Made by a program: the position numbers and the translations under genes
The notes under the pieces: model-generated
What the model was told of the DNA's origin: nothing
Seen by the model: only the letters and a program-made list of their open reading frames with translations
Database searches by the model: none
Part shown: positions 59,230 through 64,000 of the stretch, in pieces
How positions within the stretch are numbered: the first letter of the stretch is position 1
Layout of the letters: each line of letters starts with the position of its first letter
Source of the DNA: Desulfomonilia bacterium
GTDB taxonomy: Bacteria; Desulfobacterota; Desulfomonilia; UBA1062
Assembly (NCBI GenBank): GCA_050014195.1
Contig: JBEKDT010000013.1
Coordinates: 85,025-149,024 of the forward strand
Reading direction: 5' to 3'
DNA length: 64,000 nucleotides

Positions 59230-60048
59230 CTACACTTTCTTTTTGACGGCAATGGTGATGTCAACCGTCCCCCCACCAGCAATTGATGTATCCGGTAATG
59301 GTGTTTGGCTTATCACTTTCCCTTCTATTTTCTCATCTGTTGTAGGTTCTTTTAAGACCTTACCCAATTTCAGGGTTGCCTTTTCCAAGATTTCTTTCGC
59401 TTCCTCCTGTGTTTTGTGCATCAGATCAGGAACTTTTATTAATTCAGCAGCCACCTTGAAAATTCTTTTAACCTGGGCATCCAGCCATATAAAGACCTCC
59501 CGGGAGCCGTAACCTGAAAGGACACCAATGGCAAACATAGAGAGTGTTTGCCTTATATCGGGAGCATCTATTTTGAAATCTCCACCGATAATGGCAATAC
59601 CACTCCGGATTAAGGCGAATACGAAAAGTGCCAAGGCTGTTCCGGTCCAGGGGGCAACGATATACTTCCACACAAATCGTCGGCCAAATGCAGATTGTTC
59701 GCTATGCCAACTTAAAATACTCCGGATGCCATTGATGATACCTCCAAGGCCACCACCGATAAAGGTAAATGCAACCAGCCGGAAGAAAGGAGAGCTTAAG
59801 CGTCCAATGTCATAACCGATCCATTTAAACAGAGAGTATTGTCCAATCCAGACGTCAAAAAGTTGCCAAAAAAAGAAGGCAAGCATAAATAGCAGATAGA
59901 GAATGCTTATAATTGCAAAAGTTGTGTCCAAAGTCTTCTCATGGTGCAGTTTGTAGACCTTGCCAGTCAACTCATCGGTTACATATTGATCATGAGACCT
60001 CCTTCTCTCCTGTGTGCTATTGGGGGGGACGGGTTGTTGATTATTCAT
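59230..60048 (-). CDS. Four-TM membrane protein with C-terminal PASTA domain
   Basis: AGGAGG RBS; TM region with GGGLGG...YIVAPWTG; C-terminal VPDLMHKTQEEAKEILEKATL...GKVISQTP...VDITI PASTA pattern. Confidence 0.75.
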   Translation of the reverse strand: MNNQQPVPPNSTQERRRSHDQYVTDELTGKVYKLHHEKTLDTTFAIISILYLLFMLAFFFWQLFDVWIGQYSLFKWIGYDIGRLSSPFFRLVAFTFIGGGLGGIINGIRSILSWHSEQSAFGRRFVWKYIVAPWTGTALALFVFALIRSGIAIIGGDFKIDAPDIRQTLSMFAIGVLSGYGSREVFIWLDAQVKRIFKVAAELIKVPDLMHKTQEEAKEILEKATLKLGKVLKEPTTDEKIEGKVISQTPLPDTSIAGGGTVDITIAVKKKV

Positions 60049-60462: not shown

Positions 60463-60528
60463 GTCCAACGACCAAGCTAAAGGACGCGGCATAAAGCCGC
60501 CGCGTCCCTCTTGAGCGACTCGTTATGC
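60463..60528 (-). mobile_element. Integron attC site (66 bp)
   Basis: Minus strand GCATAAC...GGACGCGGC/GCCGCGTCC inner palindrome...GTTGGAC, 18 nt after the stop of 60547..60954. Confidence 0.88.
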
Positions 60529-60546: not shown

Positions 60547-60954
60547 TTAAATACCAATTTCTTTTATTAACGCTGAAGCCGAAGGAAGGAGAGCTGCAAT
60601 GTTACCAGTAGAAGCAGCAACATAAATAGCGCCGCCAAATGCAACGGCTTTTGTAGCTATACTGATTGCATGCTTAATATCTTGTATTTTCTTTGCAGCA
60701 GCCTGCATAGATGATGTGGCATCTTTCAGGACATCTATATCTTGCTCCATTAACTTTACTTTTATCAACACAGATCTTGCATTCAAGTCACTTGCAGTAT
60801 TAAAGAGTGTCCACTGATTATTCTCCAAATCTGAACGCTGTTTCGCGGACAGCTCGTCCCAATGGTCATATCGATAATTTCCTAATATCACTGACAAGGT
60901 ATGAAAAGCTTTAGACAACTCGAATAGTTCTTCAGCAGTAAGTACTCTGTTCAT
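60547..60954 (-). CDS. Hypothetical helical protein, second gene of a two-gene cassette
   Basis: AAGGAG RBS 12 nt after upstream stop; coiled-coil centre, hydrophobic Ala/Gly-rich C-terminus. Confidence 0.75.
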   Translation of the reverse strand: MNRVLTAEELFELSKAFHTLSVILGNYRYDHWDELSAKQRSDLENNQWTLFNTASDLNARSVLIKVKLMEQDIDVLKDATSSMQAAAKKIQDIKHAISIATKAVAFGGAIYVAASTGNIAALLPSASALIKEIGI

Positions 60955-60966
60955 TGCATAATCTCC

Positions 60967-61806
60967 TTATTTAGTTAGAAATGCATCCTGTACCTCTTTG
61001 ATAACAGGCTTTGCTTCTTCAACAAAACTACGAACAAAAGCAGCGACCTCTTTGCCAGTAAGCTTTTCGGCATCTTTCTTAAGCTTTGTATGCGTTGAGC
61101 CGATCTCTCGTATGTTCTTTGCAAGATCCTTAACTGCATTTAGCTTTGCATCGAGTTCTGCTCTGTCTTTCCATTGGGCTTTAGAATACGCTTCCCATTC
61201 AAGCGGCTTTTCAGTGCGTGCAGCTCTTTCAACTCTTTTGTATCCATCTTCCCACGCTGAAATTTCCATTTCAATGGCAGTTGAATAATTTTTTTCGATG
61301 ATGCTAGATAGAGTTTCAGTCACCGTGGTTATCGATGTATCGCTTTCCCTGATAAAATTACCAACTTGCTGTTGCTGGTATGCACTTGTCGCTGCTTTTG
61401 AAATAAGCTTTGCTAAGCTTCCAACAGCATCAACCTTGTTTTCTTCGAGGCCTTTCACCTTTAACCCCTTTATTTCTGTTGTCATTGCATCGATGTCAGT
61501 GTCGTAACTTACAAGTTCATCTGCTGCAAGAGCACCAAGAGCCACTGCATATTCGTCTAACACATTAGACACCGTTAGAATTGCCTTTGATGCCTCCTGC
61601 TCGGTCTTACAATCACTGTGGCTGTTTAATGGCTTAAAGCTATTAGTTCTAGTACATGAGGCATAAAAGTCTTTTGCAACTGGCTTGACACTTTCTATGG
61701 TTGACTGAGAGTATGAAGCATACTTTTGAACAGCCTCCATAGAAGTACAACCAGACATGAATAATATGAGAATGATAGACTGAGTAAGGCAAAAAAATCT
61801 TCTCAT
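60967..61806 (-). CDS. Hypothetical alpha-helical lipoprotein, first gene of a two-gene cassette
   Basis: AGGAG RBS before ATG 61806; MRRFF...LFMSGC lipobox; the ORF-track extension to 62124 crosses an attC. Confidence 0.78.
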   Translation of the reverse strand: MRRFFCLTQSIILILFMSGCTSMEAVQKYASYSQSTIESVKPVAKDFYASCTRTNSFKPLNSHSDCKTEQEASKAILTVSNVLDEYAVALGALAADELVSYDTDIDAMTTEIKGLKVKGLEENKVDAVGSLAKLISKAATSAYQQQQVGNFIRESDTSITTVTETLSSIIEKNYSTAIEMEISAWEDGYKRVERAARTEKPLEWEAYSKAQWKDRAELDAKLNAVKDLAKNIREIGSTHTKLKKDAEKLTGKEVAAFVRSFVEEAKPVIKEVQDAFLTK

Positions 61807-61836: not shown

Positions 61837-61925
61837 GCATAACCTAACGATGAGCGGCCCGCGGTCACGGATGCTTGCCGTGAGCTGGCCGCTTCCCGCG
61901 GGTCCGCCCCATCGCCGGGTTGGGC
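61837..61925 (-). mobile_element. Integron attC site (89 bp)
   Basis: Minus strand GCCCAAC...GATGGGGCGGACCCGCGG / CCGCGGGCCGCTCATC...GTTATGC; its R' complements the R'' of the next attC. Confidence 0.85.
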
Positions 61926-62023: not shown

Positions 62024-62767
62024 TCATTTCTTCTTCGAGATATCGCGGACCGCGAGGTGCCTGCCGCTCTTGAAGAGCTTACGCAGCGGCTCCGGCAAAA
62101 CCGCCAGCAGCACGTCCAGTGCAAAGCCTTTTGCCCGCTTGAAGCCGAGCTCGTCGCTTAGCTGCCACACCGGATCGTCGCCCTTGTATTTTTCGCCGAA
62201 CTTAATGACTGACTCCAGAAACATGGCGACTGAGGTGATGGCGCCATCGTTTTCCATGTGCTCGAAGTTGCAGGCGATCACGGCACCGAAGTCCAGCTCC
62301 TGGCTCATGGTGCTGCGATCGCCACGCGCTGCGAAGAGCAGGATGTCGCTGCCACCCGCGTAGGTCCACGCAGTGCGCTCTTCCATCTCCCTGCGAAGCG
62401 AATCGAAGGCCTCCGGGCTGAAAGACCATTCGTCTTGGTCGTCGAACTTGACGACGGCCTTGCGATCGCGATCGCCGTCTGCGGCCCAGTCTGAGCCGTA
62501 GCCGGCGAAGAAAAAGTCGACGAAGCCGCCCGAGCGAAAGTCGTAGTATGGCAAGTCCCTGATGATCTCGTCGGCGTACTTCGAACCGGGCCGGCAGAAC
62601 ACGATGCCGATCAGCCTAGAGGTGCTCTTGCTCGGTGGCTGGTCGTCGAGACTCCCGGCGCCGAACACCTCCTTCGGCTGTATTCCGACGTCAGCTCCCT
62701 GCGAATAAAGGGCGAGCGACTCGAAGAGTTCTTTGTAGATGGCGTCGATAGAAGGTGGTTTGCGCAC
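62024..62767 (-). CDS. Hypothetical protein (GC-rich gene cassette, 247 aa)
   Basis: GGAGG then GTG at 62767 inside the cassette; strong GC3 codon bias; the ORF-track start at 62938 crosses an attC. Confidence 0.72.
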   Translation of the reverse strand: MRKPPSIDAIYKELFESLALYSQGADVGIQPKEVFGAGSLDDQPPSKSTSRLIGIVFCRPGSKYADEIIRDLPYYDFRSGGFVDFFFAGYGSDWAADGDRDRKAVVKFDDQDEWSFSPEAFDSLRREMEERTAWTYAGGSDILLFAARGDRSTMSQELDFGAVIACNFEHMENDGAITSVAMFLESVIKFGEKYKGDDPVWQLSDELGFKRAKGFALDVLLAVLPEPLRKLFKSGRHLAVRDISKKK

Positions 62768-62842: not shown

Positions 62843-62903
62843 GCCCAACGATGTGGTCACCGGCGCGAGGGGAACGAGCGTCCGGTGCACTAAAAAGTTA
62901 TCT
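62843..62903 (-). mobile_element. Integron attC site (61 bp)
   Basis: Minus strand AGATAAC...CACCGGACGCTCG / CGCGCCGGTG...GTTGGGC; the TIR gene stop TAA lies inside R''. Confidence 0.9.
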
Positions 62904-63647
62904 AGTCTTTTTGATTCTGTATCGTGAAATCTTTTCAAGTGTTGCCTTCACGAGTCCTTCATGTCCAGTCTTCTCATAGTCCAAATAGCAAATGGTCGGG
63001 ATAATACCTGGAATCTCGGTATCATCAAGCTTAACGGGAAGGATGTACTCTCTGTTCTCCATGAGCGCCCTCGCTTGGGCCGACCGCCTCTCGTGGTTGG
63101 TCCAAACTTTGATTGCATAATGTCGCGACAAAAAGATCACGCAGTAATGCGCTTTTAGCCGGTATATGGTATCAAACGTATCATAAAGATTCGTTCCCCA
63201 TAGATCGACCTCTTCAAAGTCGGCATAGAAAATGTTGAGACCCTGAGCCTTGATCGCTTCAGCATAGGACTGCACAATAGGCCTGTCTTCCGAAGCAAAG
63301 GATATGGCCAAGTCATATTGCACTTCTTGTGGACGAGACGACGGAACTGCTTCGGTTTTAGCTAAACTAATCTTTTCAACTCCAATTTGTGGCCGTTCTA
63401 AGACGCCGAGCCCATTGCAGGTCGGGCAGATAGTTACAGTCGAGACGAAAACTGCGAGGTCAGCCGATCTGATACTGCCGCGGCCACCGCAAAACTTGCA
63501 TGTCGTCAGCCTTTCCTGAGGTATGTTTAGGTCGAACTCACCAGCCCCCTTGCAGGAGGGACAAGGCTTCCTGTTGCTAACTAAACTTAATGGATCGGCC
63601 GATTGAATCGATCCGCCGCCACCACAGATTTTACACTTGATGATCAA
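62898..63647 (-). CDS. TIR-domain protein with N-terminal 4x CxxCxGxG zinc finger (gene cassette)
   Basis: CKICGGGG, CPSCKGAG, CKFCGGRG, CPTCNGLG; YDLAISFASEDR, LWG, VIFLSRHY, WTNHE, ILPV; GGAAGGA RBS and TTG start. Confidence 0.87.
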   Translation of the reverse strand: MIIKCKICGGGGSIQSADPLSLVSNRKPCPSCKGAGEFDLNIPQERLTTCKFCGGRGSIRSADLAVFVSTVTICPTCNGLGVLERPQIGVEKISLAKTEAVPSSRPQEVQYDLAISFASEDRPIVQSYAEAIKAQGLNIFYADFEEVDLWGTNLYDTFDTIYRLKAHYCVIFLSRHYAIKVWTNHERRSAQARALMENREYILPVKLDDTEIPGIIPTICYLDYEKTGHEGLVKATLEKISRYRIKKTR

Positions 63648-63669
63648 TGCTCATCCTTCCTCGACTTTA

Positions 63670-63728
63670 GGATAACGTAACGATCACCGGCGCGAGGAAC
63701 GATCGTCCAGTGGATTGATTCGTTATGC
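63670..63728 (-). mobile_element. Integron attC site (59 bp)
   Basis: Minus strand GCATAAC...CACTGGACGATCG / CGCGCCGGTG...GTTATCC; core nearly identical to the attC at 62843. Confidence 0.9.
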
Positions 63729-63876: not shown

Positions 63877-64000
63877 TGATGTTCCCCAAGAAAAGTGGAC
63901 CACTATTTGTATTACCTTGCCAGTGCTTCATATTCAACAGGGGAACAGTAATTGATCCCCGAGTGTATCCGTTTCCTGTTGTAAAAATGGGTGATATATC
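63877..64000 (-). mobile_element. IS3-family insertion sequence, right end (continues beyond the window)
   Basis: Terminal repeat TGATGTTCCCCAAGAAAAGTGGACCAC at 63877; transposase C-terminus just inside. Confidence 0.85.
63912..63998 (-). CDS. IS3-family transposase OrfB, last 28 aa (partial)
   Basis: YITHFYNRKRIHSGINYCSPVEYEALAR*, matching the YN..R.HS.L.Y.SP.E.E ending of IS3 OrfB; not in the ORF track. Confidence 0.85.
   Translation of the reverse strand, partial: YITHFYNRKRIHSGINYCSPVEYEALAR

Follow-up and report, generated by a model that had tools for sequence, protein, structure and literature searches.

A single-gene attC cassette encoding a zinc-finger–TIR protein, a candidate one-protein abortive-infection system, in a Desulfomonilia bacterium

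Introduction

Thoeris, SPARTA, TIR-SAVED, and TIR-STING represent a known design in which a TIR effector is gated by a sensor that is either fused to it or present as a partner. In the solved TIR proteins AbTir and BtTir, the N-terminal region is a coiled coil, not a zinc module; the Glu of the WTNYE motif is catalytic in AbTir, and the biological role of both proteins is debated. RAZR (PD-T7-4), a ring-activated zinc-finger RNase (Nature 2026, PMC13017515), is a single-protein system whose N-terminal zinc ribbon, of the Cys4 type, attaches to phage ring proteins and determines the specificity. RAZR becomes active by assembling around these rings; its linker is needed for assembly, and its HEPN effector works only in the oligomer. 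Here, a gene encoding a zinc-finger–TIR protein was analyzed in a 64,000-nt stretch (the window) of the Desulfomonilia bacterium assembly GCA_050014195.1 (contig JBEKDT010000013.1, positions 85,025 to 149,024, forward strand). All positions below are those of the window unless a contig or locus is named.

Tests of the idea that attC arrays store defense genes have so far dealt chiefly with Vibrio and with mobile integrons of clinical origin. Kieffer 2025 and Getz 2025 reportedly describe integron cassettes that encode phage defense.

The zinc-finger–TIR protein is probably a one-protein abortive-infection system, directed against phages or other mobile elements, in which the zinc module would gate a predicted TIR NADase. 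The domains, the conserved ligands and Glu186, the limits of the cassette, the lack of a partner gene, and two effector swaps were observed directly and are reported first.

Domain organization of the protein

The preliminary description of this DNA, which was made from the letters alone, had read four CxxCxGxG motifs as two tandem units, followed by a linker and a TIR domain. The same organization was obtained from the sequence and Pfam (Table 1), with the motifs CKICGGGG at residues 5–12, CPSCKGAG at 29–36, CKFCGGRG at 50–57, and CPTCNGLG at 74–81. The two zinc halves (residues 4–40 and 49–85) were identical at 18 of 37 positions in a gap-free alignment. Both Pfam profiles named in that description scored above their cut-offs: DnaJ_CXXCXGXG (PF00684) with 40.0 bits (cut-off 32.7) in two stretches of the N-terminal part, and TIR_2 (PF13676) with 50.5 bits (cut-off 28) at residues 115–226.

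The TIR domain was likewise found to be intact and to keep the WxxxE Glu, as had been claimed. In a profile search of PDB sequences (E 3e-10), the Glu of WTNHE was paired with the WTNYE Glu of AbTir, and Glu186 was invariant in the alignment of 32 sequences. Among these 32 aligned relatives, all 16 Cys/Gly motif positions and Glu186 were invariant or near-invariant, and R85 and P86 of the linker were near-invariant. By mean pairwise identity, the TIR domain (64%) exceeded the zinc module (48%, or 35% when the 16 motif positions were excluded), and the linker had the lowest value (31%). Insertions and deletions in the zinc module were located in the loops between the motifs.

The full-length AF2 model was of middling quality, with a pLDDT of 73.9, and residues 90–104 of the linker were disordered (pLDDT <50). 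Among solved folds, the TIR part of the model was closest to BtTir (7uxr, E 1.5e-6), followed by BtpA, PdTIR, and AbTir (Foldseek). The N-terminal 100 residues, when modeled alone, formed eight short strands (pLDDT 80.9). A Foldseek search with this N-terminal model returned nothing at E ≤ 0.001; the best match was the DnaJA2 zinc domain (E 0.13), and rmsd values were 8–10 Å. Single halves were aligned by VIA: zinc unit 2 (model residues 42–88) with the DnaJA2 zinc domain (Z 5.5, rmsd 2.6 Å, 47 aligned residues), and zinc unit 1 (model residues 1–40) with BSD2 (Z 4.4, rmsd 2.4 Å, 40 aligned residues). The other VIA matches were anti-TRAP (Z 4.0) and the DnaJ or Ydj1 zinc domains. Every match spanned one half only, with rmsd values of 2.4–3.0 Å over 40–47 residues overall.

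The number of motifs varied among related proteins, with six in P0041, five in L133, and a single zinc unit in the fusion protein P0270, and the internal zinc units of L121 and L125 were near-identical. Because of these variants, the sequences suggest that the zinc module is made of independent tandem Cys4 units and not of the interleaved hairpin of DnaJ. A homodimer prediction (two copies, with an alignment) gave a score of 0.00, which weighs neither for nor against.

The zinc module truly belongs to the DnaJ_CXXCXGXG family, and each half weakly resembles the DnaJA2, BSD2, and DnaJ zinc domains (Z 5.5 or below). These likenesses would suit a role outside genetic conflict, for example as an NAD- or nucleotide-linked regulator or as a chaperone-like binder of unfolded proteins. 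The protein, however, has neither a J domain nor a DnaJ C-terminal domain, and the DnaJ equivalog TIGR02349 scored 34.3 bits against a cut-off of 377.2, in the zinc region only. A DnaJ chaperone was thus rejected, and a non-conflict role is very unlikely, also in view of the distribution of the homologues (see below).

Some ideas of the preliminary description were not upheld by the profile searches. It had proposed that the zinc finger serves as a decoy for DnaJ-binding phage proteins or senses unfolded protein, whereas no J domain is present and all DnaJ models scored far below cut-off. It had also pointed to the oligomeric anti-TRAP ribbon, and an Anti-TRAP identity was rejected (PF15777, 26.5 bits, cut-off 32; NF058604 RtpA, 19.6 bits, cut-off 65). 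The retron-TIR reverse transcriptase model (NF042941) matched in the TIR part only, with 44.9 bits against 600, and was rejected as well.

Table 1. Features of the zinc-finger–TIR cassette and of the adjoining array, in window coordinates
Feature	Position	Strand	Remarks and basis
Zinc-finger–TIR open reading frame (ORF)	62898..63647	minus	249 aa, 249 codons, TTG start, intact
Ribosome-binding-site-like GAGGAAGGA	63654..63662	minus	6 nt 5' of TTG start; sequence reading
Zinc unit 1, residues 1–40, CKICGGGG ... CPSCKGAG	63528..63647	minus	Pfam DnaJ_CXXCXGXG
Zinc unit 2, residues 45–84, CKFCGGRG ... CPTCNGLG	63396..63515	minus	Best Pfam stretch 45–82
Linker, residues 85–108, begins with conserved ERP	63324..63395	minus	Low-confidence part of model
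TIR domain, residues 109–240	62928..63323	minus	TIR_2 profile and Foldseek
Glu186 codon in WTNHE (residues 182–186), presumed catalytic	63090..63092	minus	Invariance and AbTir alignment
Upstream attC, R'' GCATAAC ... R' GTTATCC (gene strand)	63670..63728	minus	R1 34.8 bits, E 1.5e-6, positions 1–58 of 58
Downstream attC, R'' AGATAAC, R' GTTGGGC	62843..62903	minus	R1 32.6 bits, E 5.5e-6, full length
attC of next cassette	61837..61925	minus	R1 E 0.0017, full length; DNA fold z −2.16
attC after two-gene unit	60463..60528	minus	R1 E 0.11, full length; hairpin z −3.63
Multi-copy repeat, contig terminus	63875..64000		100% identical to ends of contigs C7, C27, C5
Next cassette gene, 247 aa, 60% G+C	62024..62767	minus	No Pfam or PADLOC match
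Two-gene unit, 279-aa and 135-aa proteins, G+C 39–41%	60967..61806 and 60547..60954	minus	No family match
272-aa protein, predicted membrane segments, C-terminal PASTA domain	59230..60048	minus	Pfam PASTA

Delimitation of the cassette

An AAC...GTT hairpin scan of the whole genome (motif and constrained fold) exposed attC-like clusters on other contigs. A covariance model, R1, was built from 11 attC sites, all located on other contigs of the same genome and none taken from the window. In the clean alignment of these sites, the consensus hairpin had 18 pairs and an unpaired T, and compensatory changes were seen at seven of the pairs. R1 was run over the window without filters and gave four matches, all on the plus strand (Table 1). 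For the hairpin at 60463–60528, none of 200 shuffled sequences was equally stable. As read from the sequences, two extra bases sit in the plus-strand 3' arm at all four sites. By a rule from the attC of aadA7, which we take to hold here, the arm with the extra bases marks the plus strand as the bottom strand, so the cassette genes are expected on the minus strand, as was seen.

The start codon lies 22 nt past the upstream attC, and the TAA stop (62898–62900) falls within the R'' box of the downstream attC; the ORF is therefore the only content of one cassette. A single-gene cassette between two attC sites with the stop in R'', as noted in the preliminary description, was confirmed by R1 at both sites (E 1.5e-6 and 5.5e-6). 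The two flanking intergenic stretches align with each other, and no promoter-sized gap separates the upstream attC from the gene. The genes of the cassette array range from 39 to 60% in G+C.

A blastn search with the four attC sites of the window against the genome gave no further copies by sequence, and a general repeat search did not pick up the flanking pair. As the flanking sites differ by indels, no matches were obtained with a consensus of fixed length made from the pair. An attC detector based on arm alignment gave no discrimination.

Redox switching by Cys4 zinc sites is known, e.g., from Hsp33 and RsrA, and cassette arrays often carry toxin-antitoxin genes. The sixteen conserved Cys/Gly positions, which form two zinc sites, could accordingly be the redox or metal switch of a selfish toxin, an addiction cassette, or a stress-responsive suicide gene, which would persist through the damage done to cells that lose or misregulate it. 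Toxin-antitoxin systems are mentioned in cassette arrays in a 2026 cassette-recovery preprint. The cassette, however, has no room for an antitoxin-sized ORF, with 22 nt upstream of the gene and the stop inside the attC, and the other effectors found on the zinc module are classic abortive-infection domains. A toxin or suicide gene of this kind is quite unlikely.

attC arrays in the genome

At E ≤ 1, R1 gave 51 matches in the whole genome. They were clustered into arrays, many of them close to contig ends: C1:150.6–165.5 kb, C7:204–214 kb, C10:179.5–180.3 kb (at the contig end), C5:183–184 kb, C9:4.8–6 kb, and C15:13–16 kb. No integron integrase was found in the assembly. The best TIGR02249 score was 82.7 bits (cut-off 265) and belonged to XerD, which was rejected as an integron integrase, and none of the 16 Phage_integrase (tyrosine-recombinase) matches in the genome adjoins an attC array. 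Of the term integron cassette, as used in the preliminary description, the attC-bounded cassette stands, while with no integrase in the assembly the surroundings are better called an attC array without a known platform.

The end of the contig coincides with that of the window and is ~270 nt upstream from the first attC. As the contig ends at a repeat, an integrase may lie past the break. In metagenome contigs, the word depth of the terminal repeat (~125 nt) was about sixfold that of its flank, and in one metagenome run the repeat abuts another attC-like sequence. The repeat is possibly an insertion sequence that targets attC arrays. Taken together, the attC sites of the genome look like a large sedentary integron split by repeats, or like several attC clusters without integrases.

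The stretch recurs identically in contigs of four metagenome runs. No excision joint was detected in these contigs, all of which stop at the repeat near 63903. Among the 24 listed runs containing the stretch, there were no RNA runs.

The cassette may be stored and silent in this genome, which would be compatible with the abortive-infection reading and concerns the expression of the gene, not its function. The interval from the attC to the start codon is too short for a promoter, the assembly contains neither an integrase nor an attI with its promoter, and a multi-copy repeat breaks the DNA ~150 nt upstream. A low-cost biobank model for sedentary integrons is described in a review. On the other hand, the ORF is uninterrupted and retains every conserved residue, its sequence is unchanged in contigs of the four metagenome runs, and read-through could come from the repeat element or from further upstream. 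Silence of the cassette was considered rather unlikely.

Homologous proteins and their loci

Zinc-finger–TIR proteins form a family that has many members but no name. Among 5.8 billion proteins searched, 622 relatives reached E ≤ 1e-3; of the 120 best, 108 had both Pfam domains within ~250 aa. Their source names were "TIR domain", "hypothetical protein", and "DnaJ-class molecular chaperone" only. In a search of 1.84 billion cluster representatives, 1294 were found at E ≤ 1e-30, nearly all of which had only the TIR in common. Within this clade, the TIR is N- or C-terminal in proteins of many lengths, and TPR, TCAD9 with SIR2_2, radical SAM, and a second (tandem) TIR were among its partners in 10 representatives scanned. 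Judged by these matches, the TIR domain belongs to a large clade that is used as a module.

Full-length copies were present in metagenome-assembled genomes labeled Oligoflexales, delta proteobacterium, Desulfomonilia, Zixibacteria, Chloroflexia, and Candidatus Methanoperedens (an archaeon). Six of the 80 kept genome loci and 30 of the 80 kept metagenome loci had a full-length copy. The gene was found in none of 14 genomes of the same genus, and the other genomes of the same family and class gave weak TIR-only matches (2/26) and nothing more. The gene is accessory and mobile.

An R1 match was located directly after the gene in 5 of the 30 metagenome loci (L106, L107, L108, L117, and L125) and just upstream of it in L012 and L108. 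As R1 is biased toward the attC type of its own genome, a model-free test was also applied, in which hairpins of the AAC...GTT type that begin at the stop codon were compared with 444 random control positions. The test covered 36 loci including the window; L120, which has no downstream sequence, was left out, and the close relatives L106–L108 were counted as one lineage. An attC-like hairpin exceeded the 5% control level in 10 of the 36 loci and the 1% level in 7. Cassette carriage recurs across the family and is not universal.

To compare the surroundings, neighboring ORFs of 31 homologue loci (five near-duplicate loci were left out) were aligned all against all. No more than seven groups, each of two members, emerged from the 119 ORFs; a conserved partner gene is therefore lacking. 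As a separate observation, the 146-aa ORFs directly upstream of two distant homologues (L015:5528–5965 and L122:276–713) are a related pair.

These loci bear further on a role outside conflict. Housekeeping genes among the neighbors of the homologues would agree with it, but the spread of the gene is sporadic and crosses phyla, the gene is absent from the congeners searched and is cassette-borne, and the module is common to AbiJ-type and PNP effector proteins, as described next.

Fusions of the zinc module to other effectors

Residues 1–95 alone were used as a query for the zinc module. Beyond the family, four proteins were returned: P0269, P0270, P0128, and P0155. The last two seem to be shortened versions of the TIR form.

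The four-motif module and the linker recur in P0269 (377 aa; 8 member sequences, 2 contigs). Its N-terminus was 64% identical over 99% of residues 1–95, and the first ~100 residues include an LERPQIG linker. The C-terminal part matched Abi_C (49.4 bits, cut-off 24) and PADLOC AbiJ (E 7.9e-9). In P0270 (425 aa), one zinc unit is followed by PNP_UDP_1 (56 bits, cut-off 25.1), and the C-terminal part matched PDC-M60C (E 3.2e-15) and the PADLOC model "Effector, PN-superfamily" (E 1.4e-11).

These fusions show that the zinc module and linker can serve unrelated effector domains, each otherwise known from defense. P0269 combines the module with an AbiJ-type HEPN domain and P0270 combines one unit of it with PNP_UDP_1, which argues for a portable regulator or sensor.

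The other proteins among the 120 best relatives of P0269 carry the ~270-residue Abi_C part behind other N-termini. These "abortive infection family" proteins of ~380 aa are a large family with varied N-terminal domains of ~100 residues, a sensor-plus-effector layout like that of the TIR clade.

Proposed mode of action

In the proposed mechanism, a promoterless integron-type cassette would carry the whole system as one protein. The double zinc module, through the ERP-led linker, would hold the TIR domains apart or inactive. The zinc module would respond to a cue of infection, in the likeliest case a protein or an assembly of a phage, by driving oligomerization. The oligomer would bring the TIR domains together for NAD+ cleavage, as in AbTir and BtTir, and the infected cell would stop. 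NADase activity, autoinhibition, the trigger, and phage protection are what we infer. The proposal is favored by a zinc module that is more variable than the effector (35% identity outside the motifs vs 64% in the TIR domain). Also in its favor are the TIR_2 match with an invariant Glu186 and with the NAD-cleaving AbTir and BtTir as nearest solved relatives, the single-gene cassette, the lack of a conserved neighbor, the module swaps, the modular TIR clade, the sporadic and mobile occurrence of the gene, and RAZR as a characterized precedent.

Several results weigh against this proposal. The zinc module is moderately conserved, not hypervariable, which would suit a fixed cellular or structural partner equally well. 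The swap to Abi_C is rare, since P0269 was the sole zinc-finger form among its best 120 relatives. No full-length match to any named defense model was found with PADLOC. Full-length copies were found in none of the 11 matching plasmid records and not in the one phage record, and 26 of the 36 homologue loci had no attC-like hairpin at the stop in the model-free test. The gene may not be expressed here, given that the cassette lacks its own promoter and that the DNA is interrupted by a repeat ~150 nt upstream. The neighborhoods of the homologues were mixed: of the 119 ORFs, three matched AAA_21/AriA-type models and two were DNA methylases, and housekeeping neighbors, e.g., RuvA, ABC transporters, and a carboxyl transferase, were present too, these tallies having no baseline. 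The defense enrichment around homologues for which the preliminary description had suggested looking was weak, and it too has no baseline for comparison.

A broader proposal is that the two-unit CxxCxGxG module with the ERP linker is a new portable infection sensor that would recognize a phage protein or assembly and switch on any attached oligomerization-dependent effector: a TIR in this family, an AbiJ-type HEPN in P0269, and, with a single unit, a PNP nucleosidase in P0270. This is a tentative possibility. If true, RAZR-like supramolecular activation would also operate with a zinc scaffold of the DnaJ type and through NAD+ depletion, and would cross phyla as integron cassettes.

For a DnaJ-type double zinc module as a putative TIR gate, the literature searched gave no earlier description. 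The natural swaps among TIR, HEPN, and PNP are ready chimeras for asking how a small zinc scaffold passes on an infection signal. The family is simple to synthesize and test because its members are ~250 aa long, stand-alone, and delimited by attC sites. The view of attC arrays as stores of defense genes would also gain an example from uncultured bacteria of wetlands and peat.

Other genes of the window and the genome

The neighboring ORFs of the window were compared with Pfam and PADLOC, and no family was recognized except for the PASTA domain of the 272-aa protein (Table 1). The PASTA part of this protein matches PADLOC PD-T4-6 models, and no clear attC was seen after its gene. The 279-aa protein of the two-gene unit has a lipoprotein-like signal sequence ending in cysteine. 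Two more TIR_2 proteins are encoded elsewhere in the genome, at C22:8473–8811 and C3:204505–204789 (open frames of 333 and 297 aa, respectively).

Comparison with described systems

The architecture had not been recognized as a named system in the preliminary description, and this holds: no PADLOC model matched at full length, and the TIR part alone matched PDC-S66 and ThsB1. PDC-S66, a single-gene candidate, was the best PADLOC match (E 4.8e-16), with residues 101–205 aligned to positions 139–240 of 282. Profile positions 1–138 were unmatched, so the N-terminal part differs. No description of the CxxCxGxG–TIR architecture was found in the full-text literature searched, while a TIR cassette may be listed in supplements and not discussed. 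The text of the Darracq 2025 preprint mentions none of TIR, Thoeris, zinc, and NAD; in the 2026 cassette-recovery preprint, "TIR" occurs once and "DnaJ" nowhere.

AbTir and BtTir (7uwg, 7uxu, and 7uxr) are the closest solved TIR proteins by sequence (E 3e-10) and by fold (E 1.5e-6, TM to target 0.72). WTNYE is aligned with WTNHE and a SHASEDK-type start is held in common, but the identity is only about 26–29%. With the DnaJ cysteine-rich domain, the protein shares the four CxxCxGxG motifs and a PDB profile match to the DnaJ zinc domain 1exk (E 6e-4).

The likeness to Thoeris ThsB consists of a TIR_2-type domain and a PADLOC ThsB1 match at residues 108–205 (E 2.4e-7). Thoeris membership was rejected, as there is no adjacent ThsA-type effector in the single-gene cassette and the ThsB1 match covers the TIR core only. 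The protein could still be a Thoeris-like signal producer, in which the TIR would make a messenger of the cyclic ADP-ribose (cADPR) type and an unlinked effector would kill the cell. Besides the ThsB1 match, this agrees with the nearest solved relatives, AbTir and BtTir, which make cADPR isomers (cf. their PDB entry titles), and with an Atlas cluster auto-named ThsB/zinc-ribbon that combines TIR with Zn_Ribbon_1 (score 0.87, a lead only). However, the cassette has a single gene and the homologues have no conserved neighbor, a mobile one-gene unit that needs an unlinked receptor would seldom work once transferred, and relatives fuse the zinc module straight to the terminal effectors HEPN and PNP. 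The ThsA1 model had no match in the genome and likewise none in control genomes, so that this negative carries no weight. A Thoeris-like signal producer is unlikely. Other Atlas clusters of small zinc-ribbon–TIR and DUF5679–TIR proteins, also leads only, indicate that a small zinc domain ahead of a TIR is not unique as a theme.

Like the integron defense cassettes (Darracq 2025), the zinc-finger–TIR cassette is a small promoterless single-gene unit that ends in attC and lies among unrelated genes; it differs in that its array has no integrase in the assembly.

RAZR is a characterized precedent for the design. Membership in RAZR/PD-T7-4 was rejected, as no PD-T7-4 model was among the five PADLOC families matched at E ≤ 1 and the effector domains differ. 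A single zinc ribbon precedes a DUF4145 HEPN RNase in RAZR, whereas the present protein has two tandem CxxCxGxG units and a TIR. Both are single proteins with an N-terminal Cys4 zinc domain, a linker, and a C-terminal effector that is, or in the present protein would be, active only as an oligomer, and in both the zinc domain is the more variable part. P0269, a relative of the zinc-finger–TIR protein, bears a HEPN-type effector behind the same zinc module.

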